This document shows positions 6,835 through 50,529 of a DNA stretch of 64,000 nt, piece by piece. The stretch lies in contig CAYVNS010000003.1 of assembly GCA_964453225.1 (NCBI GenBank), forward strand, positions 29,218 through 93,217. The letters run 5' to 3'. The notes below the pieces were generated by a model. It searched no databases, was not told the origin of the DNA, and was given only the letters and a program-made list of their open reading frames with translations. Position numbers and translations under genes: made by a program. The stretch is from an uncultured Rhodospirillaceae bacterium. GTDB lineage: Bacteria; Pseudomonadota; Alphaproteobacteria; UBA9219. Position 1 is the stretch's first letter. The number at the start of each line of letters is the position of its first letter.

Positions 6835-7263
6835 ATGGCCCGTATTACCGTTGAAGATTGTGTTCTTGCCGTTCCTAACCGTTTCGAGCTTGTGATGCTC
6901 GCGGCGCATCGCGCCCGCAGCCTGAGCTCCGGCGCGGAACTGAAGGTGAGCCGCGATCGCGATAAAAACCCCGTTGTCGCCTTGCGCGAGATTGCCGAGG
7001 CGAAAGTCGATCTTTCGGGCCTTGAAGGCGCGCTGATCAAGAGCCTTCAAAAGCGCATCGAGCCGGATCAGCCCGAAGAAGAAGTGGCCGAGCTTTTGGC
7101 GAGCGAACAGCAACCCTGGATCAACGACATCGGCGCGGCCGAGGGCGACGATGCCGACGAGGCGCTGGACGAAGAAAGCGACGATTTAGCGGAAGAAGGC
7201 GCCAATGAGGCGGAACTCGGCGGCTCGTTTGAGGACGCCGGCGCCGACGAAATTAAGGACTAG
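6835..7263 (+). CDS. rpoZ: DNA-directed RNA polymerase omega subunit
   Basis: [30 protein letters not shown] is the canonical RpoZ N-terminus, followed by an acidic tail. Confidence 0.88.
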
Positions 7264-7428
7264 TTAGAACTTTTTTACAAAGGGCGTTCTTTCGCCGAAA
7301 GGCGCCGCTTTTACGTGAGTTTTAGGCGACGCGCACACGACCTGCGCGTCGCTCAATCTTCGGTTAAAGCGCCTTTGTCGGGCAAATAACTGCCTTTTGT
7401 AAACAAGTTCTTAGGAGGAAGCTGCTAT

Positions 7429-9678: not shown

Positions 9679-9726
9679 CTTTGTAGGCCTAAATATTTTT
9701 TTAATATGGCGGTCGGCGCGGTGGTA

Positions 9727-9921
9727 TTACCCTATTTTGCGCGCCTCTTCGACGAGCATGATGGGGATGCCTTCGCGGATCGGGTACGCAAGGCCCGCTT
9801 TGTCGCTGATGAGCTCTTGGGCCGCCGCATCGTAGCGCAGCGGCGCTTTGGTGAGCGGGCACACGAGAATTTCAAGCAGTTTCGGATCGGCTTTGCGCGG
9901 GGAAGGGAGCGAGTCAGTCAT
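9727..9921 (-). CDS. Trm112/UPF0434 family small protein
   Basis: [17 protein letters not shown]...[10 protein letters not shown] matches the Trm112-like zinc-ribbon family. Confidence 0.6.
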
Positions 9922-10070
9922 AAAACCCATCCATGATAAAGGTGAAGAAAACTCAATGGGATGCCCGCCTTCCGCCTACGCCATGGCTACGGCGGACTTG
10001 GTTACTAGACCACCGAAGCTTTAGCGTAGGTGGTCGCGGGCATGACGATTTTACGAAACCGAATCCATAT

Positions 10071-11378
10071 CTACGCTGCCGTGCAGCATTTTTGGGGGGT
10101 CGCGTCGATGCCGGGCACGGGAAAGCGTTGGCAGAGATGGCGGACCTCGACATGCAATTTGTCCAAAAGCGCCTCGTCACCCGGAGCGCGCAAGACCTGA
10201 AGCATGACATTGGCCAGTTGTTCCATCTCATGCTCCTTCATGCCGCGCGACGTCGCGGCCGGCGTGCCGAAGCGGATGCCGCTGGGCTTCATCGGCGGAT
10301 TGGGATCGTCGGGAATGACGTTCTTGTTCAGCGTAATGCCCACGCGATCAAGCGCGCGTTCGGCGATATCGCCCGTGATCCCGAAGCCAGTAGCCGTGTT
10401 AATGACGATCAGGTGGTTTTCGGTGCCCCCCGTGACAAGATGCGCGCCGCCCTTCAAAAGGGCTCCGGCGAACGCTTGCGCATTGGCAAGGATTTGCCTG
10501 GCATACGCTTTGTAAGCGTCGGTCTGGACAAGCTTAAGCGTGGAGGCAAGAGCCGCGATCTGGTGCATGTGCGGGCCGCCTTGCATGCCCGGAAACACGG
10601 CTTTATCAACCGCGGCCGCGTATTGTTTTTTACACAGGATCATGCCGCCCCGCGGGCCGCGCAGGGATTTGTGCGTCGTCGTCGTCACGACATCGAAGCC
10701 GTAATCAAGCGGATTCTTGAGCGCGCCGCCCGCGATGATGCCGCCCAAGTGGCTGACGTCCGCCATGAGAAGGCATCCCGCTTCGTCCGCAATCTTTCTG
10801 AAGCCTTCGTAATCGTATTCGCGCGGATAGGAGGAATGGCCGCAAATGATGAGCTTGGGCTTTTCCTCCAGCGCGAGCTGGCGCACTTTTGCAAGATCGA
10901 TGACACCGTTTTCGGGTTCGGTCTGATAGCGGACGAATTTGAAAATCTTGGCCATGTTCGTTACGGGATGGCCATGCGAGAGATGGCCGCCATGCGTCAG
11001 CGCCATGCCCATGATTTTATCGCCGGGCTGAAGCAGCGCGAAATACACCGCTTCGTTCATCGGGCAGCCCGATAGCGGCTGGACGTTCGCGTGCTCGGCG
11101 CGAAAAACCGCTTTGGCGCGTTCGCGCGCCAGTGTTTCGATTTTATCGGTATTTTCTTGCCCGCCGTAATAGCGGCGGCCAGGATAGCCTTCGGAATATT
11201 TATTGTTAAAGACTGAGCCGAGCAGCATGTAGACTTCGGGGAAGCAGTAATTTTCGGAAGGAATCAGTTCGATGCCGTCGCTTTGGCGCACCTCTTCCTG
11301 CATCAGGGCGTTATAAACCTCGTTGTCGGATTTTTGCAGGCGATCAAGGGCCGCCGCCGAATAGGTAAAATTGGTCAT
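10071..11378 (-). CDS. glyA: Serine hydroxymethyltransferase
   Basis: LIPSENY..., PLP-lysine region [21 protein letters not shown]. Start at MTNFTYS (11378). Confidence 0.92.
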
Positions 11379-11537
11379 GCTTTCCCCTATATATTCCATA
11401 AAGTTATTGCTGCATTGCGGGATTGTAACGCGCTTTTCGGCTTTCAATCAAGGGTCGCCAAAAGGCGCGAATCTCGCGGATTGATCGCCACGATATGTTT
11501 GTCTATAGTGAGTCGAACTTATCCACAGGATTTCACC

Positions 11538-11999
11538 ATGCGCTGCCCCTTTTGCGGAGCCGACGATACGCAAGTCAAAGACAGCCGCCCCACAGAGGAC
11601 AACGCGGCGATCCGGCGTCGCCGTTTTTGCGTGAAATGCGATGCGCGCTTTACCACGTTCGAGCGCGTTCAGTTGCGCGAGATGATGGTGCTTAAACGCA
11701 ACGGCGAAAAAGAACTTTTCGACCGCGACAAGCTTTTGCGTTCGCTGAAGATCGCCTTGCGCAAGCGCCCCGTTGACGACGAACGCATCGAGCAGGCGAC
11801 AAACAGCGTCGTGCGGCAACTGGAATCTTTGGGCGAAGGCGAGGTTAGCGCCGCCCGGATCGGCGAAGCCATCATGGAGGCTTTACGAAAGCTGGATCAT
11901 GTGGCTTATGTGCGCTACGCCTCGGTGTACAAGGACTTCCGCTCGCCGGGCGATTTCGAGGAATTTGTGGATACGCTGAAAAAAGAAACCATCTTCTGA
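11538..11999 (+). CDS. nrdR: Transcriptional repressor NrdR
   Basis: MRCPFCG...zinc ribbon plus ATP-cone (VIKRDG-like [16 protein letters not shown]). The ATG lies at 11538 inside the longer track ORF. Confidence 0.9.
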
Positions 12000-12059
12000 T
12001 TCCCGCCTGCACGCCGCGTGCGTTGCAAAGCCGGAAGAGACGACAAGAAAAGGACGTTG

Positions 12060-12653
12060 ATGTTTACGGGCATTGTTCAGGACATGGGAACCATCGTCGA
12101 TATCGCCAAGGACGGCGATTGGCTGATTAAGATCAAGACGGAAAAGCTTTCCCTTCTTCGCACGCCCATCGGCGCGTCAATCGCCTGCGCGGGCATTTGC
12201 CTGACGGTGATTTCCAAGACCTATAATACTTTCCAGGTACAGGTTTCGCCCGAAACCATGAGCAAAACCACCGTCATGAAGTGGACGCCCGGCACGCGCG
12301 TTAATCTGGAGCCGGCTTTGCGCGTCGGCGACGAGCTTGGCGGGCATTTTGTGACGGGGCATGTGGACGGCATTGCCTTTGTGACGGCAAAGACGCGCGA
12401 GAATAATTGCCTGCGCCTGCAAATCGGCGCTCCCGCGGAACTGGCCCGCTTTCTGGCGCCCAAGGGATCGGCCACGATTGACGGCGTGGCGCTGACGGTG
12501 AACGAGATCGATCATGCGTTTTTTAACGTGACGCTGATTCCCCATACGCAGGATGTCACGACGCTGGGAGGCCTTGCCGTCGACGATGCCGTGAATTTCG
12601 AGGCGGACATGATTGCGCGGTATGCGGAGCGGCTGCTTCATCCGCAGCAATGA
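12060..12653 (+). CDS. ribE: Riboflavin synthase (alpha chain)
   Basis: MFTGIVQDMGTIV...two lumazine-binding repeats (GASIACAGICLTV / GSATIDGVALTV). The gene symbol is ambiguous between ribC and ribE nomenclature. Confidence 0.85.
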   Translation: MFTGIVQDMGTIVDIAKDGDWLIKIKTEKLSLLRTPIGASIACAGICLTVISKTYNTFQVQVSPETMSKTTVMKWTPGTRVNLEPALRVGDELGGHFVTGHVDGIAFVTAKTRENNCLRLQIGAPAELARFLAPKGSATIDGVALTVNEIDHAFFNVTLIPHTQDVTTLGGLAVDDAVNFEADMIARYAERLLHPQQ

Positions 12654-13792
12654 TTTCCCTCTATATCCACTGGCCTTTTTGCGTTTCGAAATGCCCGTAC
12701 TGCGACTTTAATTCGTATAGAGCGGGAACCCTCGATCAGGAATTATGGCGGCAGGCTTACCGGCGCGAGATGGAGCGCTATGCCGCGCTTTTGCCGCAGC
12801 GGCGCGTGCGCTCGATTTACTTCGGCGGCGGCACGCCGTCCTTAATGGAGGCGCGCACAGTCGAGTCCGTTCTAACGGACATTTCGAGGCTTTGGGCGAT
12901 TGAAGAAAACGTCGAAATCACCCTTGAGGCCAATCCGTCGTCGGCGGAGGCCGGAAAATTCGCCGCTTTTAGGGACGCGGGGGTCAATCGGCTTTCGCTG
13001 GGGGTGCAATCGCTGCGCGACGAGGTACTGAAATTCCTTGGGCGGGCGCATGACGCAAAAGAAGCGCGGAAAGCTTTGGCTTTGGCGGCACGCTATTTCC
13101 CGCGGTATTCCTTCGATCTTATTTATGCCTACCGAGGGCATACCTTGGAACAGTGGCGGCAAGAATTGGATGAGGCTTTAGCTTTAGCGGCGGGACATCT
13201 TTCGCTTTATCAGCTGACCGTGGAGCCCAAGACCGCGTTTGGCGCGAAGGCGCGGCGCGGCGAAGCATTAGCGGCTACCGATGATGAAGCGGCGGGTTTG
13301 TTCGAAGCGACGCAAGAGAGAACCGCCGCCGCGGGATTGCCGGCGTACGAAATTTCAAATCATGCGCGCAAGGGCCAGGAGAGCCGGCATAATCTGGCCT
13401 ATTGGCATTACGATGATTATATCGGCATCGGCCCCGGCGCGCATGGGCGCTACCGAGCGGGGAGCGCGCGGCATGCCGTTGAAAATACCGCAAAGCCCGA
13501 TGCGTGGCTTTCCCGCGTAAAAGAAAAAGGAACCGGCGTTCAGGGCGACCTTGTCCTTTGCCAGGAAGAGGCCATGCGCGAGGCGTTGTTGATGGGGCTG
13601 CGGCTGGCGCAAGGAATCGACTTTGACGCCTGGCGCGAAAAATTCGCTGTTCCCTTAATACCGTTCATCCCTGCCCTGCGGATCGAAAAGCTGGAGAAAG
13701 AAGGCTTGATGGCACGCGACGGGAAAAGCCTGCGTGCCACGAAAGCGGGATTGCAGAGATTGAACGCGGTTCTAAATTTTTTGCTTCTTTAA
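12650..13792 (+). CDS. hemW: Radical-SAM heme chaperone HemW (HemN-like)
   Basis: The CxxxCxxC motif CVSKCPYCDF lies near the N-terminus. A 4-nt ATGA overlap joins it to ribE. Confidence 0.8.
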   Translation: MISLYIHWPFCVSKCPYCDFNSYRAGTLDQELWRQAYRREMERYAALLPQRRVRSIYFGGGTPSLMEARTVESVLTDISRLWAIEENVEITLEANPSSAEAGKFAAFRDAGVNRLSLGVQSLRDEVLKFLGRAHDAKEARKALALAARYFPRYSFDLIYAYRGHTLEQWRQELDEALALAAGHLSLYQLTVEPKTAFGAKARRGEALAATDDEAAGLFEATQERTAAAGLPAYEISNHARKGQESRHNLAYWHYDDYIGIGPGAHGRYRAGSARHAVENTAKPDAWLSRVKEKGTGVQGDLVLCQEEAMREALLMGLRLAQGIDFDAWREKFAVPLIPFIPALRIEKLEKEGLMARDGKSLRATKAGLQRLNAVLNFLLL

Positions 13793-14487
13793 TAGGCTTT
13801 GGGTTTCGGGCGGAACAGGCCGACGACCGGCTCGAATAGCGCGCCTTCCCATCTCATATACGCCTTCGCCAATCCCGACATGCCCGCCATTTTTTGAACC
13901 GGGCCCGCGGGAGTCATTTGCGAGCCTGTTTGAATGGCTTTATCGGCCATTTTTTTGAGCACCGGCTGCGGGAGATTCTGGGAATTCAGATTCACGGCGC
14001 GTGTTTGGTCTTTTCGCTCGGCTATTTTTTTGAAGCTTTCACGAACCTTTTTCAGTTGCCGGATGTGCCCTTGAAGAGGGCCTTTTGTCATCGTGAAGGA
14101 ATCGCCAGAGGGAAAGGGAGCGGCCGTGGACGCCATTTCCATGCGGTAAGGGCGGTGCAAACCGGACGACTTGCGGGCAAACTTATCAAACGAACAAGCG
14201 TAGCGGTCATCGACATCGCTGTGCTTGCTGTTGGACGAAGCGATAATCCCTTCGGGGCGCGCGCTTGCGGACGAGGCGGGCTTGGAGGGCAGCCCGAGGC
14301 GCTTTTCCGTTCGTTTCAGGTCTTCCTCATTGAGCTTGTAGGAAACCGAGGCCGTTCCTTCGCCGTTGACGCTTGCGTTGCCGTCGGCGACATAGCTAAT
14401 CCCATGGCCTGCCAAGTTTCCGTCGACAGAAAGAGTTTGTTTGTCGCCGAGAATTTGTCTGAGATCGTCGGACGATAAATCGGACAT
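13789..14487 (-). CDS. Hypothetical protein (232 aa, low complexity)
   Basis: Long ORF with no recognisable domain. Coding potential is plausible but no family was assigned. Confidence 0.4.
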   Translation of the reverse strand: MSDLSSDDLRQILGDKQTLSVDGNLAGHGISYVADGNASVNGEGTASVSYKLNEEDLKRTEKRLGLPSKPASSASARPEGIIASSNSKHSDVDDRYACSFDKFARKSSGLHRPYRMEMASTAAPFPSGDSFTMTKGPLQGHIRQLKKVRESFKKIAERKDQTRAVNLNSQNLPQPVLKKMADKAIQTGSQMTPAGPVQKMAGMSGLAKAYMRWEGALFEPVVGLFRPKPKAY

Positions 14488-14724
14488 TTCAATATTCCTG
14501 CACGAAATACACCTATTCTAACCCATACAGCGTTAATGCCGGATAAATTTCAGAACACGGGCGCGAAATATTAACAAAACCAGTTGGTTATACCAACGGC
14601 CTTAAATTCTGACACCTAGAGTCCGTTGGTATCCGAGGCGACTGCCGAGGCGGCGGCTTATGCCGCCGAAGGCCCTAAATTTTCTTCAAAAACGATTATG
14701 TGTCAAAATTTAGGGCCACTGGTA

Positions 14725-15942
14725 TTATTGATAAGCATTTATAAAGCTGGTCGGCGAGGGATCTACGGCTATTGTGCCCGCCGCCGTTATTTCAAGAACC
14801 GCCATGGCGCGTTCGACAGCGCCCGACGCGCGCAAGCGGAAAATGCCGTCGAGGCCCGCAAAGCCGTTTGGATTCGTGAGCGCCGCCTCGTCGTAACGAA
14901 GCCCGCGCTTGGCGAGAATGGCCGCAAGCGCTGTCGCGTCATAAGCAAGCGTGGCAAGGCGAGGCGGTTCCGCGCCGTAGGCCGCCTGATAGCCCGCGAT
15001 GAAAGTGCGTCGCTGGGCCGGATCGGGGGCTGCGTACCAGCCGCCGATGAGAAACGGGACTTGGCGGCCAAGGGCGGGCGTGTCCCATAAACCTGTGCCG
15101 AGCAAGCGCGTGCGGGACGAATTGAAGCCTGCGGCGGCAAGCTGATCGGCAACCTTTTTAAGATCGTTGCCGCTTGCCGGCAAAAAGAGAGCGTCGATCA
15201 TGTTCTGCTGCAAGGCGAGGGCTTGGACTTTTTCGGCTAGGTCGGCGCCTTTCGGATCGTAGGTTTGCACGTCGATCAGCGTTTGGCCTTGCTCGCCCAG
15301 CGTGCGGCGGAAGACATCGTCCACCAGCGTTCCGTAAGGCGTTGCGGGAATAAGGGCTGCGAAACGATGCGCCCCGCGCGATGCCGCATAGGCAACGACG
15401 CGCTGGACCTGCGCGGCCGGCGCGAGGCCCATCACGAAAACGCCGCGTTCGGCAAGCGACGTGTCGGTGGATAGGGGAAGCACCAGAAGGCCGTTGGCTT
15501 GCGCCGTGCGCTTGACGGGGGGGACATCGGCGGCGAATAGAGGGCCGATGATAAGGCTGGCGCCGTCGCCGATGGCTTTGCGCGCCGCCGTTTCCGCGCC
15601 TTCCGGCCCGGCCGTGTCGCGCGGTTGCAGCTCGAAATTATTGCCCGCCGAGTCAAAAACCGCTTGTTGCGCGGCGTTCAGCATCGCCTGCCCAAGGGCC
15701 GCGTTAGGCCCCGAGAGGGGCAGAAGGATAGCGGCCTTTTGCTTGAGGAGGGCTGCGGCCGGGGCCGGGGCAAGCGGCTTTGACGCGATGGCCGGCTGGG
15801 GCATAGCTTTCTCGGCAGGGGAACGATAAGCCGGATGGTCTGTTGCGGTTTTCTGGGGTAGGATGCCGGACTCGCGCAGCGTGCTTGTGCACCCGCTTAT
15901 CATTAAGAAGAAGGCGCATGCCAGGAAAAGATAAGTCTTCAT
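14725..15942 (-). CDS. lpoA: LpoA/LppC-like lipoprotein (putative penicillin-binding protein activator; periplasmic-binding-protein fold)
   Basis: Lipobox LMISGCT, a Pro/Ala-rich linker and then a type-I PBP-like domain. It is divergent from rsmI-yraN, as in the E. coli lpoA/rsmI locus. Confidence 0.6.
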   Translation of the reverse strand: MKTYLFLACAFFLMISGCTSTLRESGILPQKTATDHPAYRSPAEKAMPQPAIASKPLAPAPAAALLKQKAAILLPLSGPNAALGQAMLNAAQQAVFDSAGNNFELQPRDTAGPEGAETAARKAIGDGASLIIGPLFAADVPPVKRTAQANGLLVLPLSTDTSLAERGVFVMGLAPAAQVQRVVAYAASRGAHRFAALIPATPYGTLVDDVFRRTLGEQGQTLIDVQTYDPKGADLAEKVQALALQQNMIDALFLPASGNDLKKVADQLAAAGFNSSRTRLLGTGLWDTPALGRQVPFLIGGWYAAPDPAQRRTFIAGYQAAYGAEPPRLATLAYDATALAAILAKRGLRYDEAALTNPNGFAGLDGIFRLRASGAVERAMAVLEITAAGTIAVDPSPTSFINAYQ

Positions 15943-15968
15943 CGCTTGATTATCCCTCGTTGGGCCGA

Positions 15969-16838
15969 ATGCTGGTTGAGGCTAGCGGGAACGGCGCTTT
16001 ATGTAAACCTCCCGCCGGGCTTTATTTGGTCGCGACGCCCATCGGGCATTTGGGGGATATGACGTTGCGCGCGCTGGTGACTTTGGCCTCGGCGGATATC
16101 ATCGCGTGCGAGGATACGCGCAAGAGCGGGCTTATGCTGCGCGCTTTCGGCATAAAAAGTCCTACGCTGTCGTATCACGATCACAATGCGGACAACAGAA
16201 GGCCTGACATTTTAAAGCGGCTTGGCCGCGGCGAGGTTGTGGCGCTGATCTCGGACGCGGGCATGCCGGCTATCGCCGATCCGGGTTTCAAGCTGGTGCG
16301 CGCCTGCCGCGACGCCGGTTTCCTGGTAACCGTTCTTCCGGGCGCCAATGCGGCTTTGGCGGCGCTGGCTTCTTCGAGCTTGCCGACGGATCAGTTTCTC
16401 TTTGGCGGTTTTTTACCTCCCAAAAGCGCGGCGCGAAAGAAAACCGCTGCCATTTACAAAGCGCTTGCCGCGACCTTGGTTTTTTATGAATCCCCCGCGC
16501 GCCTTGCGGAAAGCCTTGGCGATTTGGCCGATGTTTTCGGGGCGATGAGACCGGCGGCCGTGGCGCGTGAACTTACAAAAATTTATGAAGAAGTGCGCAA
16601 GGGTACTTTGGGCGAATTGGCTGCCTATTATAGTGAGCATGAGGCTAGAGGAGAGATTGTGATTCTCGTCGGCAAGGACGCGCGCGAGGGATCCGACGTC
16701 CTGGATATCGACTCGCTGTTGGCGGAGCGGCTAAAAATTCTGAGCGTGCGCGATGCGACGGCGGAAGTGGCCGAAATGACAGGCCTGCCGAAGAAAGATG
16801 TTTATCTGCGCGCGCTTTCGCTAAAGGCGGCCAAATGA
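15969..16838 (+). CDS. rsmI: 16S rRNA (cytidine1402-2'-O)-methyltransferase
   Basis: LYLVATPIGHLGDMTLRAL...IIACEDTRKSG is the tetrapyrrole-methylase fold. Start at the MLVEAS ATG, 15969. Confidence 0.85.
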   Translation: MLVEASGNGALCKPPAGLYLVATPIGHLGDMTLRALVTLASADIIACEDTRKSGLMLRAFGIKSPTLSYHDHNADNRRPDILKRLGRGEVVALISDAGMPAIADPGFKLVRACRDAGFLVTVLPGANAALAALASSSLPTDQFLFGGFLPPKSAARKKTAAIYKALAATLVFYESPARLAESLGDLADVFGAMRPAAVARELTKIYEEVRKGTLGELAAYYSEHEARGEIVILVGKDAREGSDVLDIDSLLAERLKILSVRDATAEVAEMTGLPKKDVYLRALSLKAAK

Positions 16839-17955: not shown

Positions 17956-18194
17956 CGATCACTCCTGTTCAAAGTTAATCAGTTCATGCGACCGTTCCGG
18001 TAATAAACTTCCGAAACTTTCCTAAGGAGAAGATCAAAATATGATTAATAATTATGAACAAATAGTTATGGGAGTGTGTGGCATACATAAATATGTGGAA
18101 AATGCCTATTAAAGCGAAAATCATCGCCCTCCCTGCCTTTTTCCGTCAAAAGGAAAAGCAGGAAGGGGAATGGAAGCGGATCTAACGCTTTGGT

Positions 18195-21100
18195 TTAGCT
18201 TATTTTCTTGGCGCCGGCGGTTGCCTGTGCTTCGAGCGTGCGGCTGACGGCGTCCGTTAAGCCATCCCCTGTCGCTTCGAGCTGCATCAGGATTTGGCCC
18301 AAGCTTCGCATCAGGTCTTCGCCTTGCGTTTTTAAGGCCGTTCTCATGCGGTCCGTGCGCTGCTGCATTTCATCGATGCTTTTGTTCATGCCGACGACCT
18401 GGTTGTGCGCGTCGCTGACGCCCTTGTTCAACGCGGTCGTTTGATCGTTGTAGATCTGGCCGATGCCGCGCATGATGCCCGCCGCCGTGTTGGCGCCGGC
18501 CGCCATGTTGCTCATTTGCGACTGAACGGCGGTGACGACTTCATCCAGCTTTTCGATGGCATGGACGCTGAGGTCGCCCGACAGGGCGCGCGTGTTTTCA
18601 ACCTTTTCGGCGATGGTGGACAGATGCGACAGGAGCTGTTGCAGATGTTCGAGCGCGCTGCCTTCTTGCGATTTGATGTCGGCGCCGGCCTGAGCCATGT
18701 GGTCGATCATTTGGTCGAACTTGCCGCTGAACGACGCCAGCAAGCGGCTGACCTCTTCCATCGACTGGCGCATTCTGTTCGTGCCCGCATCGACTTGCGC
18801 GACCGCCGTTGCGCCCGTTTCCTCAAACCGCTTGCTAACGCGTTCGACATCGGAGACCGCGCCGACCGTCGTGGAGCGCAGGCTTGTGCTTGTGCGTTCC
18901 AGTTGCGCCGTGATTTTCATCAGGCCGTTGCTGATTTCGTCGATCTGGCCTTGCAGCGCGCCACGGATGCTTTCCATGTGGTCGCGCAACGTATCGCCCG
19001 TCGTGACGATGCGGTTTTCGGCCCGCGTCGTCGCTTCGGAAATCGCCTCGATCTGCTTGACGATGCCTTCGCCGGCCTGCGCCAGGCGTCCGCCTGTCGT
19101 CGCCGCGCGCTGGTCGAGCTGGTCGAAATCGCGGACGAGGCGTTCCGCCGTCACCGTGGCTTCGTTTCTTAGGGTCAACAGGCGCTGGCCCGCTTCGGCA
19201 AGCGAATCGACGCCGACGCTGGCCTTTTCGATCAGATCGCGCTGTTCGCCCGAAAGCTTGGCCGTGCTTTGCTGCATGGCGGCCACTTGCTCGGCCAACA
19301 GCTGGTTGAAGCCGTTGAGGATGCGCCCGGCGTCTTCCGCAACGCCGCCGACGCGTTTCATCTCTTCGACCATATTGCTTCGCGTCGACGCGGTGACGGA
19401 GATGAAGCGATCCGCCGTGTCGATCATCGCCTTGTTGGCGTCCATCGACTGGGCTTTCAGCGCTCGCGCGGCCGTTTCAATATCGATGAGGCCTTCCTTC
19501 AACGTGGCGGGCAACTGCTTCGCCTCGTTCTTCAGGCTTTCCGAAACCTTCGCAAAGGCTTGTTCGGACTTGGCCAGGTTCGTGCGCAAGGTATCGTTCT
19601 GCATCGCCAGCGCCTTGGACGCGCCCAGCACATGCTCGGCCGCCTTATGCGACAGATCGGAGAGATGTTGCAGCTGGCCTTGCATCGCGCCTTTGACTTC
19701 TTCGATGCGCGACGCGGCCCGTTCGACGACTTCGTGGCCCGCTTTTTCCGTGGCGGTGATCGTATCGCGCAAGACAGCCAGGCGCGTTGTGGCGTATTCC
19801 GCCGCGTTGGCCAAGGCTTCCGTCTGCGTTTCGGCCTTGTCGCCCATCTCCCCCACCACGCGCAGGTGGGCGTGCATTTTTTCGCCGATGCTTGTCAGGC
19901 GGCCTTCGGATTGATCCAGCGTTTGCGACAAGGCTTCGGTTTGGCTGCGAATAAGCTCGGCGCCGTCTTTCGTGACTTCGGTGAAGCGCTTGGTCGTTTG
20001 ATCGAGCGACTGCACGGAATCGCGCAAATGGACGGCTTGTTCCCCGATGCCGGAAGCAGCGGAGACAATGCCGCGCAATTGTTGCTCGGCCTTCTGGCCT
20101 TCGTGATTCAGGGCCACCGCCTGCTGGGCGAAACCGCCGACCGACGCGGCGACATTGGCGAGCGTTTCCTGCGCCTTCGTTCCGATGGCGTCCATGCTGT
20201 GGGTGATGCTCGTCGCGCTTTCTTGCAGGCGCTCGGCCGTACGTTCCGCCGTGGCCGCCGTTTCGTTTTGCACGCCCATAAAGCGCGTGATGAGCCCGCC
20301 GATGGTATCGCGCTGCGAGTCCAACGCGATGGCAAGCGTTTTCTGCCGGTCGTCGATTTGCTGCAAGGCCTTGGCCAAAAGCCCCGCCTTTTCGCCGATG
20401 GATTGCTGAACCGAGGACAGCGTTTTTTCGGCCGAATATCCCGCTTCGTGCATATCATGCGCGCCGGCGGAGAGGCGGCCCAAAAGCGCGTCCAGGGTTT
20501 CGTTGGTTCGCTCGCCGTCGGCTTGCATGGACAGGCGCAGATCGTAGATCTGGCCGTGCAGGCTTGTCGTCGTCGAGAAGATGGTCTGCGCCTGTTCTTC
20601 GATGCGCTTGGCTTCGATATCGATGGCTTCGGCTTCCTTGGCGAAGGATTCCGTGGCCGTGCGGACGCTGCTAAGCGCGCTTTGCGCCCGCGTGTCGATA
20701 ACGTCGGCGCTGATGGCGATTTTCTGCGCGTCTTGCGTCAGGCGCGTGGTGAGGCGATCCGACGATTGGATCGTTTCCGCCTGCGCGTCGGCAAGCCGTT
20801 CGAACAGGGACTTGATGATCTCGCGCTGGGAATCGAGCGAGGTGCCGAGCTGTTGCTGGCGATCGTTGATCTGCTGAACCAGGGCGGCGAGCGCGGCGCA
20901 TTGCTGCGTCGCGTTGTTGCCGAGAGTCATCAGGGACATTTCCGTCGAGGAGCTGATGTCCCGCAGTTCAGCCGAACCCGCCGTAATCTTGCTGAGCAGC
21001 GAGCCGTAGACCGAGTTCGTGAGATCGCCCTCTTCGCGCAGCGTGGCGCACAACGCGCCCAGCTTTTCGTTGGCGCCGGAGGCGGACGTGACAATGACGC

Positions 21101-24100
21101 GCGCATCCTCTTCCGTTTGGCGCGCTTTCTTTTCGATGGATTCGGCCTCATAGGCGAACCCGGCCGTGGCTTTTTGCAGGCTGTTGAGGGCGTCGTGCGC
21201 GCGCCTGTCGATGGTGCCGACGCTGGTCGTGATTTGCGTCACGCTTTCGGTTAGACGATTGGCGGCGCGTTCGGCTACCGACGCCGTTTCCTCCTGAACG
21301 CCGGTAAGGCGCGACATCAAGCCGTCGATCACGTCGCGCTGGGCGTTAAGCGCCGTCGTCAGCGTGCGCTGGCGGTCGCCGATCTGATTCATGGAGACGT
21401 TCAATTCGCCCGCCTGCTGTTCGAGCGCGTGATGCAGCGTGGTGAGCGCGGCGTTTGTGCTGGCGCCGATGTCGCGCACGTCGCCGCCGCCTTTTGTCAG
21501 GCGTTCGAGCAGCATTTGCAGGCTTTCGCCCGCGCGTTCGCTTTCGTTTTGCAGGCTGAGGCGCAACTGGTGCGCCTGTTCCTGCAAGGCCGAGGTCGCC
21601 GTAAGGACGGTGCGCGCCTGCTGTTCCGCCGCCTGCGCGTTTTGAAGAAGGAGCGAGGCCTGATCGGTAAAGCCCATGCTGGCGATCTTGACGTTGCCGA
21701 TGGCGGCCTGGGATTTGTCGCCGACGTCGCCGACCTGGCGCTCGATATCCTTCAGCGCGCTGGACAGATAGGCGATGGTGCGCTCGGCAATGCCGGACGC
21801 TTCCGCGTGCGCGGCGCTGAGTTTGTCGAACAATTCGAACATCTGGACGCGTTGTTTCTCGGTGGATTCCGCCAAGACGCGTTGCTGCTCGCCGATTTGA
21901 TCGCCCACGACGGCCAACGTCGCCGCCTGCTGCGTAACGTGCGCGCCGAGCGTGGAGAGCGTTTTTTCCGCCCGTTCGGCCATGGCGTGCAGTTCCTGCG
22001 TGGATTTGTCGATCGTCTTCGTGCTGCCGGAGGCCATATCGTTAAAGCGCTGCGTCGCCTGATCGGCCCCGCGCGTCGCCGTGTCGGCCACCTGGCGCAG
22101 CTTGCCTTCCGCCCCCGTAAGACGCGCGACGGAATCTTCCAGGTGCGACAAAAGCAGGCTGTTTTCCTGTTCCATATTGACGCGGATGGACGAGGCTTGA
22201 TCGGTAAGCGTGCCCGTGGCTTTCGACAGCTGGTCGAGCAGACCCGCGATCTCTTGCCCGCCGTCGACGAGCTTGACCGTATGCTCGCCGAAGGTGCCGG
22301 CCGCGCCGACAATCGCGTCCGCCGCGGTTTGCGCCGCGTGGGTCATCGTGTTCGTGCGATCCTGGAACGCCGTGATGGTGTCGTCGAGCTTGGAGAGAGC
22401 CTTCTGGCTGTACATGAGCGAGGTTTCATGCGCCGCCGCCATTTTGGCGTTGAGCGTTGAGAGCGTTTCCGCCGCACGGTCGCTGCTGACGGAAATTTTG
22501 CCCGCGTGCATTTCGATTTTGGCCGCATCGGTGGCGATTTGATCGGCCTCGCGCTGCAGGGCGCTGTGCAGCGTGTCGACCTTAATCTGCGCCGCGTTGA
22601 CCGTTTGATCCATCTTATCGGTAACCTCGCTGTAACGCGTCGCGGCGCGATCCAAAAGGACATGCGCGGCGGAGGCGCGTTCGCGCACAATCTCGCCGAG
22701 CATCGTGAATTTTTGTTCAGCGCCGGTAAGATCGCTCGAAATGGCTTCGGTCTGCTGGCGCAGGAGCGTTTCGATACGCGACGCTTCCGCCGTAAGGGAA
22801 GAGGCGACATCCTTGACATGCGTTGCGGACGTCTTGGCCTTTTCCAGCATCTGGTAAGACTCTTCGCCCACGCTGCGCGCGGCCTGCTGTAAGCATTCGA
22901 GCGCATGCGCGGCCTGCCCGTCGAGACCTTGGGTTTCGCGTTTCAGGCTGTCGGACAAATCCGTGAACTGCGCCAGGGTCTGGCGCGCGGCGTCTTCCTG
23001 CGTCGCGCGGGCGGCGCCAAATCTTTCCTCGAGCGTTTCCAGCGCGAGCACGGTATCGGCGGTCGCGCGGCTCATTTGATGGCTCATGCCCTGAACGCGG
23101 GAATGGAAATCCTGCAGGCGGCCAACCTGGGTTGACAGGCCTTCGCCGTAAACGCCCAGCGATTGCAGCCCCTGCTCGGCGCTGGCACCAATGGCGTCCA
23201 CCGCCTTTTGCACCGGCGTAACGGCCTGCGCGGCGAAGCTTTGCATCTTTTGATCCGTCGTCGCCAACTGATTCTGCGTTTCGGACAAAAGGGTCAACAG
23301 GCCCGCTGAATGATCGCGCAAATTCTTGCTGGCGACTTCCGCCTGCGCTTGCAGTTTCTGCACCGCTTCGAGCAGAATCGCTTCGCTGGCGCGGGTTTTG
23401 CCCGAGAGATCGCTTTGCTGGCGGCCAAAATTCTCGGTGGCGGCGGAAATGGCGCGCGTGCTGAGCTGGACGGTCTCGCCAAGGCGCTGAACCATCTTTT
23501 CGTTCTGGGCCATGGCGTCGTTGATATCCTTGGCCAGCTTCTCGCCGACGCTTTGGGTCGCATCGCGCACGGAGAGGACGCGTTCGAGCACTTGCTGAAG
23601 GTTTTGCAAAGCGACGCTGGCGCGGGTTTCGACTTCCTTGCCGGCCTTGTTGGACGCGACGTTCAGTTCTTCGAACTGCGCCACATGGCGCGCTATTTCA
23701 TCGGCCATATTCTTCATATGGTCGTTGCTGTCGCTGGACAGGGTGCGCAAGCGCGTGAGCGCTCCTTCGTACTTGCCCGTCGTTTCATCCAGATGGGCGG
23801 CGATGGCTTCGGCATTCGCGCGCGCATCGTCATTAACGGCGGAGAAGCGCGCCATGGTGCCGTCGGTGCGCATATTAAGATCCGAGACCGATTTCTCGAA
23901 GGAATTGATGAACTCCGAGGTCGTGGAACCGACGCGGTCGATCAGATGGTTCAAATCGCTTTGGCGGCGGTCGAGGCTGGCGTCCACGTCCACAAGACGG
24001 CCCATAAAGCGCTCCATAAGCGTTTGGAGCCCATCTGCCTGATGCGCGAGATGGTCGCTGAGCTTATTGGCTTGCTCGTGCGCAAGCTGTTCGCTGGCGT

Positions 24101-25208
24101 AAAGGCGGTCGGCCACGCCGCGAAGGATGGATTCGGCTTCGCCGACACGCACGGGAAGCGTCGTGCTGAGATCTTCCAGCGTGCGGGTTTGAGCGTCGAG
24201 CGCGTGGGTCATGCGTTCGGACTCTTCGCGGGCGGCCGAGGCACGCTCTAAAAAGCGCGCGACGCTAAGATCGATTTTGCTCGAGAGGCCGCTGAGCGTT
24301 TCGCTGGCGGCTTCGGCGGCCGTCGAAAGGCTGGATTCTTGTAAACGGGACGTATCGGCAAGCCTTTGGGTATCGAGTTGGGCGCGTTCCAGCGATTGCG
24401 AGATTTGAACCGTTGCCTGCTCGACTTCCTCCAGCATTTTGGAGACCTGCTCCCCGATGCCTTCGACTTGACGCGCAACGCCGTCGCCGTTTTTCTGCAA
24501 TTTCCCGTCGAGAACGCGCAGCATCGTGAATTTATCGTCCATCATCTGTTCGATCTGGAACATGCTGCGGCGCACGACGTCCTGGATTTCCTTGACTTGC
24601 TGCGCGCTGACGTTTTCGAAGCGCTCCAGATCCGCCCGGTGCTGCTGCACGCGGTCCATGATGGCTTCCAGATCTTCCTGGCTGACGGATTGCGCGCTGC
24701 GCAAAAGGTCGATCTGCTCACGGATCGCCTGATTAAAACGGCGGATGCGCGCATCGGCCGCGCCGGACTCGCCCGTAATAAGCGTGAGCTGGCGGCGCAA
24801 GGGGTCGGCGACGGATTCAACGTCGGACGCGCGCTGCAAGTAAGCCGTGATCATCCAGATCATGGCGACGGGAGAAACGGATGCGGAAATGCCAATGGCC
24901 CAGTCGACCAGAGAAACGCCGCCCAGGGTACGCTCGGGGCCGGACGTGCCGATGATCGCGATAACGCCGGACACCCACGCAAGAGAAATGCCCAAGCCAA
25001 TCCAGAAAGGCAAAGACGATGCCTTGGATATTTTCGGAATCGATATCTTTTTTCCGGTCGGCGGCTTGATTGCTAGTGGTGCGGGCGTATGAGCAGGAGA
25101 AGAAGTTAGGGGAGTCTTCTGCAGGGCCATTTTGATCCTCGACATTCCGGTATTAATCCCGCAAAAAGCACATACGTTTCCCCGCTCGTTTCGAGAAGGG
25201 AACGACAT
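18195..25208 (-). CDS. Giant membrane-anchored coiled-coil protein (2,337 aa), two N-terminal TM helices, internal tandem repeats
   Basis: Uninterrupted 7,014-nt ORF. ATG at 25208; an alternative start MALQK at 25130 is preceded by GAGG. TM1 is FWIGLGISLAWVSGVIAIIG and TM2 is WAIGISASVSPVAMIWMITAYL. The remainder is Ala/Gln/Glu/Leu/Thr-rich helical sequence. A candidate hairpin terminator lies at ~18130-18170. Confidence 0.75.
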   Translation of the reverse strand: MSFPSRNERGNVCAFCGINTGMSRIKMALQKTPLTSSPAHTPAPLAIKPPTGKKISIPKISKASSLPFWIGLGISLAWVSGVIAIIGTSGPERTLGGVSLVDWAIGISASVSPVAMIWMITAYLQRASDVESVADPLRRQLTLITGESGAADARIRRFNQAIREQIDLLRSAQSVSQEDLEAIMDRVQQHRADLERFENVSAQQVKEIQDVVRRSMFQIEQMMDDKFTMLRVLDGKLQKNGDGVARQVEGIGEQVSKMLEEVEQATVQISQSLERAQLDTQRLADTSRLQESSLSTAAEAASETLSGLSSKIDLSVARFLERASAAREESERMTHALDAQTRTLEDLSTTLPVRVGEAESILRGVADRLYASEQLAHEQANKLSDHLAHQADGLQTLMERFMGRLVDVDASLDRRQSDLNHLIDRVGSTTSEFINSFEKSVSDLNMRTDGTMARFSAVNDDARANAEAIAAHLDETTGKYEGALTRLRTLSSDSNDHMKNMADEIARHVAQFEELNVASNKAGKEVETRASVALQNLQQVLERVLSVRDATQSVGEKLAKDINDAMAQNEKMVQRLGETVQLSTRAISAATENFGRQQSDLSGKTRASEAILLEAVQKLQAQAEVASKNLRDHSAGLLTLLSETQNQLATTDQKMQSFAAQAVTPVQKAVDAIGASAEQGLQSLGVYGEGLSTQVGRLQDFHSRVQGMSHQMSRATADTVLALETLEERFGAARATQEDAARQTLAQFTDLSDSLKRETQGLDGQAAHALECLQQAARSVGEESYQMLEKAKTSATHVKDVASSLTAEASRIETLLRQQTEAISSDLTGAEQKFTMLGEIVRERASAAHVLLDRAATRYSEVTDKMDQTVNAAQIKVDTLHSALQREADQIATDAAKIEMHAGKISVSSDRAAETLSTLNAKMAAAHETSLMYSQKALSKLDDTITAFQDRTNTMTHAAQTAADAIVGAAGTFGEHTVKLVDGGQEIAGLLDQLSKATGTLTDQASSIRVNMEQENSLLLSHLEDSVARLTGAEGKLRQVADTATRGADQATQRFNDMASGSTKTIDKSTQELHAMAERAEKTLSTLGAHVTQQAATLAVVGDQIGEQQRVLAESTEKQRVQMFELFDKLSAAHAEASGIAERTIAYLSSALKDIERQVGDVGDKSQAAIGNVKIASMGFTDQASLLLQNAQAAEQQARTVLTATSALQEQAHQLRLSLQNESERAGESLQMLLERLTKGGGDVRDIGASTNAALTTLHHALEQQAGELNVSMNQIGDRQRTLTTALNAQRDVIDGLMSRLTGVQEETASVAERAANRLTESVTQITTSVGTIDRRAHDALNSLQKATAGFAYEAESIEKKARQTEEDARVIVTSASGANEKLGALCATLREEGDLTNSVYGSLLSKITAGSAELRDISSSTEMSLMTLGNNATQQCAALAALVQQINDRQQQLGTSLDSQREIIKSLFERLADAQAETIQSSDRLTTRLTQDAQKIAISADVIDTRAQSALSSVRTATESFAKEAEAIDIEAKRIEEQAQTIFSTTTSLHGQIYDLRLSMQADGERTNETLDALLGRLSAGAHDMHEAGYSAEKTLSSVQQSIGEKAGLLAKALQQIDDRQKTLAIALDSQRDTIGGLITRFMGVQNETAATAERTAERLQESATSITHSMDAIGTKAQETLANVAASVGGFAQQAVALNHEGQKAEQQLRGIVSAASGIGEQAVHLRDSVQSLDQTTKRFTEVTKDGAELIRSQTEALSQTLDQSEGRLTSIGEKMHAHLRVVGEMGDKAETQTEALANAAEYATTRLAVLRDTITATEKAGHEVVERAASRIEEVKGAMQGQLQHLSDLSHKAAEHVLGASKALAMQNDTLRTNLAKSEQAFAKVSESLKNEAKQLPATLKEGLIDIETAARALKAQSMDANKAMIDTADRFISVTASTRSNMVEEMKRVGGVAEDAGRILNGFNQLLAEQVAAMQQSTAKLSGEQRDLIEKASVGVDSLAEAGQRLLTLRNEATVTAERLVRDFDQLDQRAATTGGRLAQAGEGIVKQIEAISEATTRAENRIVTTGDTLRDHMESIRGALQGQIDEISNGLMKITAQLERTSTSLRSTTVGAVSDVERVSKRFEETGATAVAQVDAGTNRMRQSMEEVSRLLASFSGKFDQMIDHMAQAGADIKSQEGSALEHLQQLLSHLSTIAEKVENTRALSGDLSVHAIEKLDEVVTAVQSQMSNMAAGANTAAGIMRGIGQIYNDQTTALNKGVSDAHNQVVGMNKSIDEMQQRTDRMRTALKTQGEDLMRSLGQILMQLEATGDGLTDAVSRTLEAQATAGAKKIS

Positions 25209-25560
25209 TGCCTTTTAGGGGCTAGATACTAAGGTTTATAACATAACAGTTTTTTGGGTCAGAATGGAAGCGTTAACAGAGATTAAGTGAAAAAATCTGT
25301 TAGCAACTTCAAAGGCGATACCCCTCGCAGCATTGATACGAATCCGGAATAATTGTGCACTCTCACCAATTTTTTGTGCGCAGCAAAGGTGCAGCATTTT
25401 TTAAGCAGGGCACTAAGACTGGCTGTTGGGGGTGGGACGCGGCTGACAGACTAGGGATAGGGCTTGGCCTTTGTTTTCGACGACAGTTGCGCCGGCCATT
25501 CAGGCGGGTTAACATTTGCCCGTGGACACCTTGCCTCCCCCTTCACGCCGGTTGCCGCTC

Positions 25561-26871
25561 ATGCTGCGGTTCAAGCGTCTTTTGCCGCGCAGCCTGTTTG
25601 GCCGCATGCTTTTGATTTTCGTTTTGCCGACCTTTATCATGTTGGCGGCCGCGACCTATGTCTTTTTCGAAAGGCACTGGTACACCGTTACCAAGCGGAT
25701 GACCTATGCGCTGGCCGGCGATGTCGCCTTTATCGTCGAGCTTCTGGAAAACAGCAAAAACATGGATACTTTCGAAGGCGTGAAGACCCTTGCCTACGAA
25801 AAGATGAATCTGACGGTCACCTTCATGCCGGGACAGACCTTGCCGCCGCGCACGTCACGGTATTTGGGACCTATCGGCGTCATTCTGAAACATGCCTTAA
25901 ACGACAATCTGTCATACAGCTATGTCCTTGATATGTCTTATGCGCCGGAGACCATCAGCGTGAAAGTGGGGGTTCCCGAAGGCGTTTATTCGATCCTTTC
26001 GCCGGAGCGGCGCGTTTACACGCCAACCACGAAGGTATTCATTATCTGGTTGACGGGGAGCTCTTTGCTTCTTACGACCATCGCCTTGATCTTTATGCGA
26101 AATCAGATCCGCCCTGTACGAAGGCTGGCCGAGGCGGCCGAGGCCATCGGCAAGGGGCGCGAGGTGCCCTGGTTTAAGCTGGAGGGGTCTTCCGAAGTAA
26201 GACAGGCTGGCTCGGCCCTGATGGTTATGCGGGATCGGCTTAAACGGCAGATTACCCAGCGGACGGCCATGCTGGCGGGCGTTTCGCACGATTTGCGCAC
26301 CCCCCTGACGCGCATGCGCCTTCAGATCGAACTTATGGGCGCAACCCCCGATACGGGCGAGCTTTTGTCTGACGTGGCCGAGATGGAGGATATGCTGAAC
26401 GCCTATCTGGCTTTTGCGCGAAGCGAAGAAGCCGAAGTGGCCCAGCCCGTTGATTTGCAGGAATTTTTATCCGAAATGGTCGCAACCGCACGCCGGCAGA
26501 ATCCGCATATCTCTTTGGCGGCCCCGGAAGGCATTAAGGTGATCATGCGCCGCAATGCCATGAAGCGGTGTTTAGGGAATTTGATCAATAACGCGCTTCG
26601 TTACGGGGCGCATGCGGAAGTTAAGGCCTCTGTGGCGGATCAGATCGCCACGATTACGCTGGACGACGACGGGCCCGGCATCGAAGCCGCGCGGCGCGAG
26701 GAAATGTTCCGGCCCTTTACGCGCATCGAGGAATCGCGCAATCCGGCAACGGGTGGCGTTGGGCTTGGCCTGACGATCGCCCGCGACATTGCCCGCTTTC
26801 ACGGCGGGGATGTTATTTTAGAAGATAGTCCTTTGGGCGGACTAAGGGCCCGGGTTTGGATTCCCGTGTAG
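25561..26871 (+). CDS. EnvZ/CenK-like sensor histidine kinase (2 TM, periplasmic loop, HAMP, HisKA, HATPase)
   Basis: MLRFKRLLPRSLFGRMLLIFVL aligns with the EnvZ N-terminus. H-box GVSHDLRTPLTRMRL; G-boxes DDDGPGI and GGVGLGL. No adjacent response regulator. Confidence 0.8.
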   Translation: MLRFKRLLPRSLFGRMLLIFVLPTFIMLAAATYVFFERHWYTVTKRMTYALAGDVAFIVELLENSKNMDTFEGVKTLAYEKMNLTVTFMPGQTLPPRTSRYLGPIGVILKHALNDNLSYSYVLDMSYAPETISVKVGVPEGVYSILSPERRVYTPTTKVFIIWLTGSSLLLTTIALIFMRNQIRPVRRLAEAAEAIGKGREVPWFKLEGSSEVRQAGSALMVMRDRLKRQITQRTAMLAGVSHDLRTPLTRMRLQIELMGATPDTGELLSDVAEMEDMLNAYLAFARSEEAEVAQPVDLQEFLSEMVATARRQNPHISLAAPEGIKVIMRRNAMKRCLGNLINNALRYGAHAEVKASVADQIATITLDDDGPGIEAARREEMFRPFTRIEESRNPATGGVGLGLTIARDIARFHGGDVILEDSPLGGLRARVWIPV

Positions 26872-50272: not shown

Positions 50273-50529
50273 TTTGCGAATCCTTTTGGTTTTCAAAGAT
50301 CGTATAGTTAAGAGCTAACGCCTCTTACGTCAAAGATCAAGCCCTACAAATGGGGCGGGATTAGGGCGAGTCGTCGATCGTTCGCGGCCGTAGACAGCGT
50401 TCGGTTCGCGGGCTGTTTCAAGAGCGGCGACTCCCTGTCGGAAATGCCGCTCTCCTGATTCGTTAAAGCGATTTTAACCTATGCGTGCAAACTGTTCGTT
50501 GAGTCTCTTTTTCCTCGCGGATCCTCTTT

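Follow-up and report, generated by a model that had tools for sequence, protein, structure and literature searches.

A giant helical protein of an uncultured alphaproteobacterium with a membrane anchor probably related to that of GPR and RgsE

A single giant gene, on the minus strand at 18195-25208, stands out in a 64,000-nucleotide (nt) stretch of DNA from an uncultured Rhodospirillaceae bacterium (assembly GCA_964453225.1, contig CAYVNS010000003.1, positions 29,218 to 93,217 of the forward strand; hereafter the window, whose coordinates are used throughout). Its product has two N-terminal transmembrane (TM) helices and a very long, predicted helical body. We found that the membrane anchor of this protein is very probably homologous to the anchor of GPR, the growth pole ring protein of Agrobacterium tumefaciens, and of its homologue in Sinorhizobium meliloti, RgsE (SMc00190; PMC7327166). 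GPR assembles into a ring at the pole where the cell grows, and its loss leads to round cells (PMC8262873). Giant scaffolds of this type localise to the growing pole as a ring or as foci, and Rhizobiales depend on them for rod shape and normal unipolar growth; round or branched cells result from their depletion or overproduction. Judged by its sequence, the window protein belongs to a sister branch, known from uncultured Alphaproteobacteria outside Rhizobiales, within a wider, anchor-defined superfamily and is not a GPR orthologue. On balance we lean towards the view that it is an inner-membrane, GPR-like anchored helical scaffold that organises envelope growth or polarity and whose length is critical.

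Results

Relation of the anchor to GPR and RgsE

GPR is 2,115 amino acids (aa) long; it has a pair of TM helices near its N-terminus, lies mostly in the cytoplasm and contains an uninterrupted helical stretch of about 1,700 aa (PMC8262873). Its sequence was taken from Fig. S3 of that paper as text obtained by optical character recognition (OCR), which covered 2,099 of the 2,115 residues. Searching with GPR residues 1-630 returned 120 Rhizobiales-type relatives, none of which belonged to the family of the window protein; among these relatives the anchor is strongly conserved as well. When 107 anchors of the window family were aligned as a profile with 88 anchors of the GPR family using hhalign, the two matched with a probability of 96.6% (expectation value E = 5.3e-10, score 67.8) over 125 collinear columns. 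The alignment paired TM1 with TM1, TM2 with TM2 and the motif A..RI...NQAIREQ with A..I...GQAVRREV. As controls, the reversed template scored 25.0 and full column shuffles at most 28.1, while shuffling confined to segments, so that the TM layout was kept, gave a mean of 20.8 with a standard deviation (SD) of 3.7 and a maximum of 29.3 (n = 40).

The hidden Markov model (HMM) of the GPR-family anchor scored 17.3 bits on the window protein, at residues 62-171 (residues are numbered from Met1 of the maximal open reading frame (ORF), at 25208, unless counted from Met27). Scores on the family lay between 13 and 30 bits for nearly all of the 99 proteins matched, and in all 99 the best stretch was the N-terminal module, never the helical body. 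Taken together with the hhalign result and an exhaustive profile search, this delimits an anchor module very probably homologous to that of GPR/RgsE at residues ~62-200 (24609-25025, minus strand).

In that exhaustive search, 1.84 billion representative sequences were scanned by HMMER with the anchor profile of the window family. It yielded 382 clusters (at 50% identity) at E ≤1e-3, 91 at ≤1e-10 and 32 at ≤1e-30; a word-indexed search with the anchor profile had returned short fragments only. Among the matches listed beyond the core family, 61 were at least 800 aa long, with library-wide E values of 1e-8 to 1e-24, and 49 of these 61 end in the C-terminal globular domain of GPR (GPR residues ~1986-2097; 30-40% identity, E = 1e-12 to 1e-21). 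As the window-type anchor thus heads proteins that bear an independent hallmark of GPR, the homology of the anchor was taken as very probably established.

Many of the proteins numbered P0283 to P0396 are comparatively short (840-1,900 aa, median 1,257) and pair the two-TM anchor with the C-terminal globular domain of GPR. The GPR-like superfamily therefore reaches well beyond the ~2,100-aa Rhizobiales proteins of the literature, both in breadth and in range of length.

Departures from GPR outside the anchor

The C-terminal domain of GPR was found in none of the 158 core-family proteins, in contrast to the 49 of 61 long distant relatives listed above. BLASTP of the last 340 aa of GPR against the window protein gave no counterpart (best E = 0.38), and hhalign of the family C-terminus against that of GPR returned a probability of 1.7%. 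The apolipoprotein A1/A4/E-like family PF01442, several domains of which extend over ~75% of GPR (PMC8262873), did not match the window protein even at E = 1. On some homologues and on fragments of the GPR family it scored 26-58 bits, below its gathering score of 90 bits. Placement in a characterised family thus holds in part: the anchor belongs with the GPR/RgsE superfamily, but the C-terminal domain and the 11/22-residue repeats are absent.

Repeats, periodicity and length classes of the body

Searching segments of the protein against the rest with BLASTP, together with ungapped identity and an offset scan, located four tandem repeats of 171 aa at residues 1043-1726 (20031-22082, minus strand). 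Repeat 1 spans residues 1043-1213 (21570-22082), repeat 2 residues 1214-1384 (21057-21569), repeat 3 residues 1385-1555 (20544-21056) and repeat 4 residues 1556-1726 (20031-20543), all on the minus strand. Segments matched at offsets of 171, 342 and 513 residues, with E values down to 1e-29 and ungapped identities of 0.23-0.41, while control offsets gave nothing. A self-BLAST of the whole protein returned the diagonal only; it was the segment-against-rest search that brought the repeats to light. No tandem repeat was detected at the DNA level in this region, suggesting that the 171-aa copies are old. Far from being featureless, the protein has about four 171-aa repeats besides a near-invariant anchor and a conserved C-terminal tail.

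The autocorrelation of hydrophobicity peaked at lags of 25, 75 and 50 residues (r = 0.31 at lag 25, against a shuffle maximum of 0.097), with a spectral peak at 3.57 residues per turn, and the 25-residue period was also seen in distant family members. The heptad-like periodicity proposed in the first-pass annotation describes the body only roughly: lags 7 and 14 were weaker than the dominant hydrophobic repeat of 25 residues.

Body length was measured in 85 complete homologues from the invariant AYLQRA motif to the C-terminus. In 46 of them it was exactly 1,918 (15 proteins), 2,089 (25 proteins), 2,260 (four proteins) or 2,431 residues (two proteins), that is, 1,918 + n × 171. Within length classes the proteins align ungapped at a median identity of 0.37-0.61, which implies essentially no insertions or deletions (indels) over ~2,000 residues and speaks for a strong structural constraint on the rod. 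The number of repeat copies rises with the length class (~2.5, 3.4, 4.4, 5.4 and 6.2). The body of the window protein measures 2,216 residues and differs in length from the 2,260 class by only two deletions, one of 11 residues and one of 33; in other members of the clade indels are chiefly of 22 residues, and one gap of 29 residues occurs. Across pairwise alignments, body indels were mostly of 11, 22 or 33 residues. At 3.57 residues per turn, 171 residues correspond to ~48 turns and 11 residues to ~3 turns, so that both kinds of length change would keep the phase of the hydrophobic seam. By arithmetic at 0.15 nm per residue, ~2,190 helical residues would extend over ~300 nm and each repeat over ~25 nm.

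The gene and its product

The ORF list and the translation confirmed one stop-free ORF of 7,014 nt including the stop codon, equivalent to 2,337 codons, as the first-pass annotation had stated. The protein length of 2,337 aa given there applies to this maximal ORF, but the real start is probably Met27 (ATG at 25130), giving a coding sequence at 18195-25130 (minus strand, stop codon TAA at 18195-18197) and a product of 2,311 aa. This start was chosen because the Shine-Dalgarno-like GAGGA at 25136-25140 (minus strand), read directly from the sequence, precedes the Met27 ATG by 5 nt, because close homologues all begin with MALQKTP, and because the NCBI product, P0001, has 2,311 aa; this database copy is 100% identical. 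Chance can be dismissed with certainty as the origin of the ORF, because it has over 100 full-length homologues, the most distant at 20-30% identity.

The composition (A 13.7, L 9.9, S 8.7, T 8.3, Q 7.9 and E 7.8%) agrees with the description of a body rich in Ala, Gln, Glu, Leu, Ser and Thr. Proline is indeed nearly absent, with 15 residues overall and just three beyond residue 136; glycine, which had also been described as almost lacking, makes up 6.2%. Scans of the whole protein against Pfam and NCBIfam found nothing above cut-off, and neither a Walker A motif (G....GK[ST]) nor an LSGG signature was found in it, in keeping with the initial remark that no enzymatic motif is visible. SMC, ATG17, ZorA and MCP-like matches in these scans were dismissed as coiled-coil noise. 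A sequence search of the PDB gave only a marginal HAMP match (E = 0.008), and Foldseek with the N-terminal model against the PDB gave nothing significant (best E = 1.9).

Membrane topology and predicted structure

Kyte-Doolittle hydropathy exceeded 1.6 only at residues ~66-87 and 103-123, and AlphaFold predicted helices there; the N-terminal tail followed by two hydrophobic helices was thus recognised correctly from the outset. The putative cytoplasmic tail (residues 27-65; 25014-25130) is rich in Pro and Lys, poorly conserved and modelled with a predicted local distance difference test (pLDDT) below 50. TM helix 1 (residues 66-87; 24948-25013) is defined by hydropathy, the AlphaFold helix and the family motif PFW.G..S..W. 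A short loop of 15 aa, predicted to be periplasmic (residues 88-102; 24903-24947), contains one K/R and is non-helical in the model. TM helix 2 (residues 103-123; 24840-24902; SPVA.IWM..AY), again set by hydropathy, runs in the AlphaFold model into the juxtamembrane helix. The juxtamembrane segment (residues 124-170; 24699-24839) carries the near-invariant LQRA.D....PLRRQL..ITGESGAA.ARIRRFNQAIREQ..LLR, recognised by invariant alignment columns and with a block conservation of 0.80. All these segments lie on the minus strand. The family consensus of the anchor, PFW.G..S..W ... SPVA.IWM..AYLQRA.D....PLRRQL..ITGESGAAE.RIRRFNQAIREQ..LL, is kept even at 20-30% overall identity.

The net charge of the tail is +6 and that of the loop -1, so both termini, and with them the giant body, would be expected on the cytoplasmic side. 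A secreted adhesin or S-layer protein, with a signal peptide and a body outside the cytoplasm, was rejected: the first hydrophobic segment starts 40 residues past Met27, behind the +6 tail, and TM2 returns the chain to the cytoplasm. The Pfam scan of the giant protein found no beta-rich or adhesin domains.

AlphaFold2 was run on ORF residues 27-430, with a family alignment, and on residues 960-1400, both modelled as monomers. The first model shows a disordered tail, TM1 at 66-87, the loop, TM2 with the juxtamembrane helix at 101-146, a short helix at 149-170 and then a single helix of 253 residues at 177-429 (mean pLDDT 71.5; 76-88 for the long helix). The second, covering the repeat region, is all helix, in lengths of 192, 73 and 151 residues (mean pLDDT 60.6), and its helix breaks are short and lie at Gly-rich spots. 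No compact or globular domain was predicted in either segment. The models suggest that the ~2,190 cytoplasmic residues form an almost continuous alpha-helix, a segmented rod. Charges and models together support the topology proposed in the first-pass annotation, namely a short cytoplasmic tail, two TM helices and a very long cytoplasmic helical body of scaffold-like, non-enzymatic character.

Distribution and conservation of the family

A homologue search over 5.8 billion proteins found 119 homologues, nearly all of 2,000-3,500 aa and either unnamed or called 'hypothetical protein', from metagenome-assembled genomes (MAGs) of uncultured bacteria under labels such as Alphaproteobacteria and 'Bdellovibrionales'. 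A scan with exact peptide patterns, covering a single genome for each GTDB species, gave 40 loci, all in MAGs that bear the labels uncultured Rhodospirillaceae, Micavibrio, Bdellovibrionales or Alphaproteobacteria; the patterns were too strict to reach Rhizobiales, so this result carries no information on GPR. The mixture of Micavibrio and Bdellovibrionales labels arises because NCBI taxonomy still places Micavibrio in Bdellovibrionales.

Conservation peaks at residues 81-400 and 2241-2320 and stays at 40-50% over the whole body. The conserved C-terminal region (residues 2241-2337; 18198-18488, minus strand; conservation 0.61-0.68) ends in the tail TGDGLTDAV..TL..QA...AKKIS, with the KKIS codons at 18198-18209. 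From the C-termini of the 85 complete homologues we derived the family consensus TGDGL.D.V..L..QA...LKKIS; members of 3,000 aa also end in ...RGLKKIS.

Several relatives deserve mention in their own right. P0118/P0119 (locus L041, 10001-16168) look intermediate: at 2,055 aa they combine a window-type anchor and the 25-residue period with a GPR-like, Pro/Gln-rich low-complexity tail and a ...QKKSV end. They have no detectable 171-aa repeats and share the gene's setting between mutS and Inositol_P. At locus L036 (7021-15917) the giant gene appears as three overlapping ORFs (7021-8820, 8699-12730 and 12459-15917), reflecting either frameshift pseudogenisation or assembly errors. The annotations of P0021, P0084, P0102 and P0135 and of the GPR-like matches list the recent Pfam models PF26039, PF27121, PF28217, PF27984 and PF27974, one of which may already describe the anchor or some other region of these proteins.

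Genomic surroundings

The window is core chromosome and includes spoT/relA, glyA, ribE, hemN-like, lppC-like, rsmI, yraN and satP as well as nusA-infB, rpoN, lepB-rnc-era, ctpA-like, purH, dnaK and fabF. Of the 40 related loci, 20 have mutS directly upstream of the giant gene on the same strand, with era-rnc-lepB-acpS beyond mutS; on the downstream side they have inositol monophosphatase or pfk. The window has lepB-rnc-era ~10 kb from the giant gene, and the locus looks like the usual mutS neighbourhood after a rearrangement. This shared neighbourhood supports orthology within the family and points to no partner in function. L001, the closest locus, has the same neighbourhood throughout as the window.

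A histidine kinase gene (HAMP-HisKA-HATPase; 25516-26871, plus strand) is divergent from the giant gene. It is an orphan, as first noted: no response regulator adjoins it, and the nearest OmpR-type regulator lies at 4961-5677. As a functional partner the kinase was rejected, since it is adjacent only in L001 and lies on the opposite side of the gene in L006. Upstream, the giant gene has no canonical CtrA box. The element TTAATCTCTGTTAAC (25272-25286), within the divergent promoter region, reads TTAA-N6-TTAA and so departs from the canonical N7 spacing of CtrA sites; the sole canonical TTAA-N7-TTAA in the window lies at 50463-50477, the number expected by chance.

Downstream, ~23 nt past the stop codon, an imperfect intrinsic-terminator-like hairpin with a U-rich tract lies at 18122-18172 (minus strand; -35.3 kcal/mol, z = -3.7), and none of 200 shuffles folded as stably. 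Neither a direct nor a tandem repeat was found at 18122-18172, so the 'structured repeat element' of the first-pass annotation is better described as a single strong, terminator-like hairpin, which by its sequence and position is probably the intrinsic terminator of the giant gene. An Rfam scan of the window gave no match.

Elsewhere in the window, the maximal ORFs of the lppC/LpoA-like periplasmic-binding-fold gene (14725-15942, minus strand) and of rsmI (15843-16838, plus strand) overlap by ~100 nt at their 5' ends, and at least one of the two starts probably lies further downstream. Between rpoN and lepB-rnc-era is a gene for a GT87-family (PF09594) membrane glycosyltransferase (34132-35379, minus strand). 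It is envelope-related and sits within the housekeeping stretch that parts the giant gene from its usual neighbours.

Discussion

A GPR-like anchored scaffold

By analogy with GPR and RgsE, the window protein may act in envelope growth or polarity. Its two-helix hairpin would hold it in the inner membrane with both ends in the cytoplasm, followed by a segmented helical rod of ~2,190 residues. The near-invariant anchor may dock on a conserved inner-membrane partner, comparable to TolQ and other Rgs proteins in the case of RgsE, and the rod might self-associate through a 25-residue (7+7+11-like) hydrophobic seam to build a higher-order, membrane-proximal scaffold. Rod length, given in exact 171-residue modules, would then fix the dimension of the scaffold, which could serve as a strut or ruler positioning the machinery of envelope growth or polarity. 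The conserved ...LKKIS end might provide a terminal docking site in place of the C-terminal domain of GPR. A more specific version, which we put forward tentatively and consider rather unlikely, is a register-locked ruler: length would come in 171-residue modules, indels would be mainly multiples of 11, and the number of repeats would set a physical dimension of a polar or envelope scaffold in Alphaproteobacteria outside Rhizobiales. If it is true, the design of a GPR-type anchor with a giant rod would predate Rhizobiales and would have diversified into at least three types of body and C-terminus.

Several points speak against a GPR-like scaffold. Comparing the window protein with GPR by BLASTP gave no significant match (the best, at E = 0.009, was out of register) and the HMM of the window-family anchor left the TM region of the single OCR-derived GPR sequence unmatched; because of these failures the homology draws on profile-level evidence, and on ~125 residues only. 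The C-terminal domain, needed for complementation in Agrobacterium, is missing from the window protein; in GPR, deleting 221 or 332 aa of the C-terminal region blocks complementation (PMC8262873). The hydrophobic period is 25/50/75 in the window family as opposed to 22/11/44 in GPR, the apolipoprotein-type 11/22 pattern being absent. Krol et al. suggested that the role of homologues outside Rhizobiales may differ. No conserved operon partner was found in the related loci, where synteny is of the housekeeping kind only. AlphaFold confidence is moderate (the pLDDT means given above, predicted template modelling score ~0.2), and monomer models are silent on the oligomeric state. The ruler idea is drawn from length statistics alone, and the host organism is uncultured.

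Other explanations were weighed against the same evidence. The Caulobacter polarity landmark TipN has a pair of TM helices at its N-terminus and then a long coiled coil in the cytoplasm, the same gross topology as that of the window protein, whose host is likewise an alphaproteobacterium. A TipN-like protein would set polarity by labelling the new pole or the division scar, and would not scaffold envelope growth. By analogy this is conceivable, but the window protein is ~2.5 times longer than TipN, its anchor is demonstrably related to GPR/RgsE, and the canonical CtrA box is missing upstream, so we regard a TipN-like landmark as improbable. We assign a similarly low probability to a scaffold for a lifestyle-specific polar organelle, such as a prey attachment or feeding site in Micavibrio-like epibiotic predators, as distinct from a general growth organiser. 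Many family members do come from MAGs labelled Micavibrio or 'Bdellovibrionales', and the lack of the GPR C-terminal domain in the family is compatible with a changed role. Against this, many carriers are labelled simply Rhodospirillaceae or Alphaproteobacteria, the neighbours are housekeeping genes with no predation-linked genes adjoining, and the sequence holds no pointer to the cell exterior.

The strong amphipathic periodicity and the sub-threshold PF01442 matches on some homologues would also suit a lipid or membrane coat of the apolipoprotein, phasin or Vipp1 kind, with the helices lying on a membrane or lipid-droplet surface, and GPR itself has been classed as apolipoprotein-like with a proposed lipid link (PMC8262873). 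We nevertheless judge such a coat to be very unlikely: the window protein has no PF01442 match at E = 1, its period is 25 and not 11/22 residues, Foldseek matches to Vipp1/PspA were not significant (E above 4), and exact lengths with indels mostly in multiples of 11 better suit a register-locked rod. It is a little harder still to believe that the likeness of the anchor to GPR is convergent or compositional, in which case the window protein would be a giant coiled-coil membrane protein of separate origin, and its function could not be judged by that of GPR. Pairwise BLASTP and one direction of HMM search did fail, and TM segments can inflate profile scores; yet the true score exceeds that of shuffles with a preserved TM layout by ~12 SD, the alignment takes in the soluble juxtamembrane helix, every match falls on the anchor and none on the body, and the profile finds proteins bearing the unrelated C-terminal domain of GPR. 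Least credible, indeed highly improbable, is an SMC-like protein or chromosome tether that anchors or organises DNA at the membrane. It would accord with a weak TIGR02169 match, with names like 'chromosome segregation ATPase' that some homologues have been given automatically and with mutS as the usual upstream neighbour. However, TIGR02169 scored 25.9 bits against a cut-off of 729.4 and in coiled coil only, there is no Walker A, signature motif, head, hinge or SMC Pfam domain, and no DNA-binding domain was detected; the missing ATPase motifs largely refute this reading already.

Significance

Few organisers of unipolar growth are known in Gram-negative bacteria. GPR and RgsE belong to these few, and their anchor appears to define a much wider superfamily, the 382 clusters at 50% identity reported above. 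The window branch keeps the anchor and exchanges both the type of helical repeat and the C-terminal domain, which separates what may be universal (anchor and giant rod) from what is lineage-specific. The stepwise exact lengths turn the importance of length into a concrete, testable hypothesis, for which natural variants with ~2.5 to 6 repeats exist. For more than 100 'hypothetical' giant proteins of Micavibrio-like and related uncultured Alphaproteobacteria, the present results provide an informative annotation. The protein is not categorically new, since GPR and RgsE are characterised and distant homologues outside Rhizobiales are noted in one sentence of the literature. To our knowledge, however, the branch itself, its helical period, its C-terminal tail, the 1,918 + n × 171 length classes and the breadth of the superfamily are undescribed in the literature consulted.

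Comparison with known systems

In Streptomyces, Scy and FilP are long cytoskeletal, non-heptad coiled coils with unusual long-period hydrophobic repeats that organise polar growth. They differ from the window protein in having no TM anchoring, in belonging to another phylum and in their repeat length, and they are not known to be homologous to it.

The first-pass annotation had regarded proteins of this kind as functionally undescribed and had likened this one to scaffolds such as TipN; with a very probably homologous anchor, GPR (Atu1348) and RgsE are the relevant characterised comparators. GPR resembles the window protein in its giant size (2,115 vs. 2,311 aa), two N-terminal TM helices, cytoplasmic bulk and internal tandem repeats, in ~1,700-2,100 aa of near-continuous helix and in the very probably homologous anchor of two TM helices with a juxtamembrane segment. 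Outside the anchor, similarity between the two is undetectable. GPR has a Pro-rich low-complexity region and its C-terminal globular domain where the window protein has the conserved ...LKKIS tail, and its body shows an 11/22-residue period with PF01442 matches, in contrast to the 25-residue period and lack of such matches in the window protein. The host of GPR belongs to Rhizobiales, that of the window protein lies outside them. P0283, P0284, P0298 and others like them share the anchor (library-wide E = 1e-8 to 1e-21) and a helical body with the window protein, but they carry the C-terminal domain of GPR and are much shorter.

RgsE, a GPR orthologue compared here by its description, has 2,089 aa and the same two-TM topology and cytoplasmic body as the window protein. 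It localises to the growing pole and has TolQ, RgsA and RgsS as partners (PMC7327166). The Rhizobiales proteins occur together with the other Rgs polar-growth proteins, in hosts that lack the MreB rod system. No Rgs homologues were found among the genes examined in the window. For Emcibacterales and Rhodospirillales, distant RgsE homologues have been noted where the other Rgs proteins are missing, and this description (PMC7327166) fits a protein of the window type.

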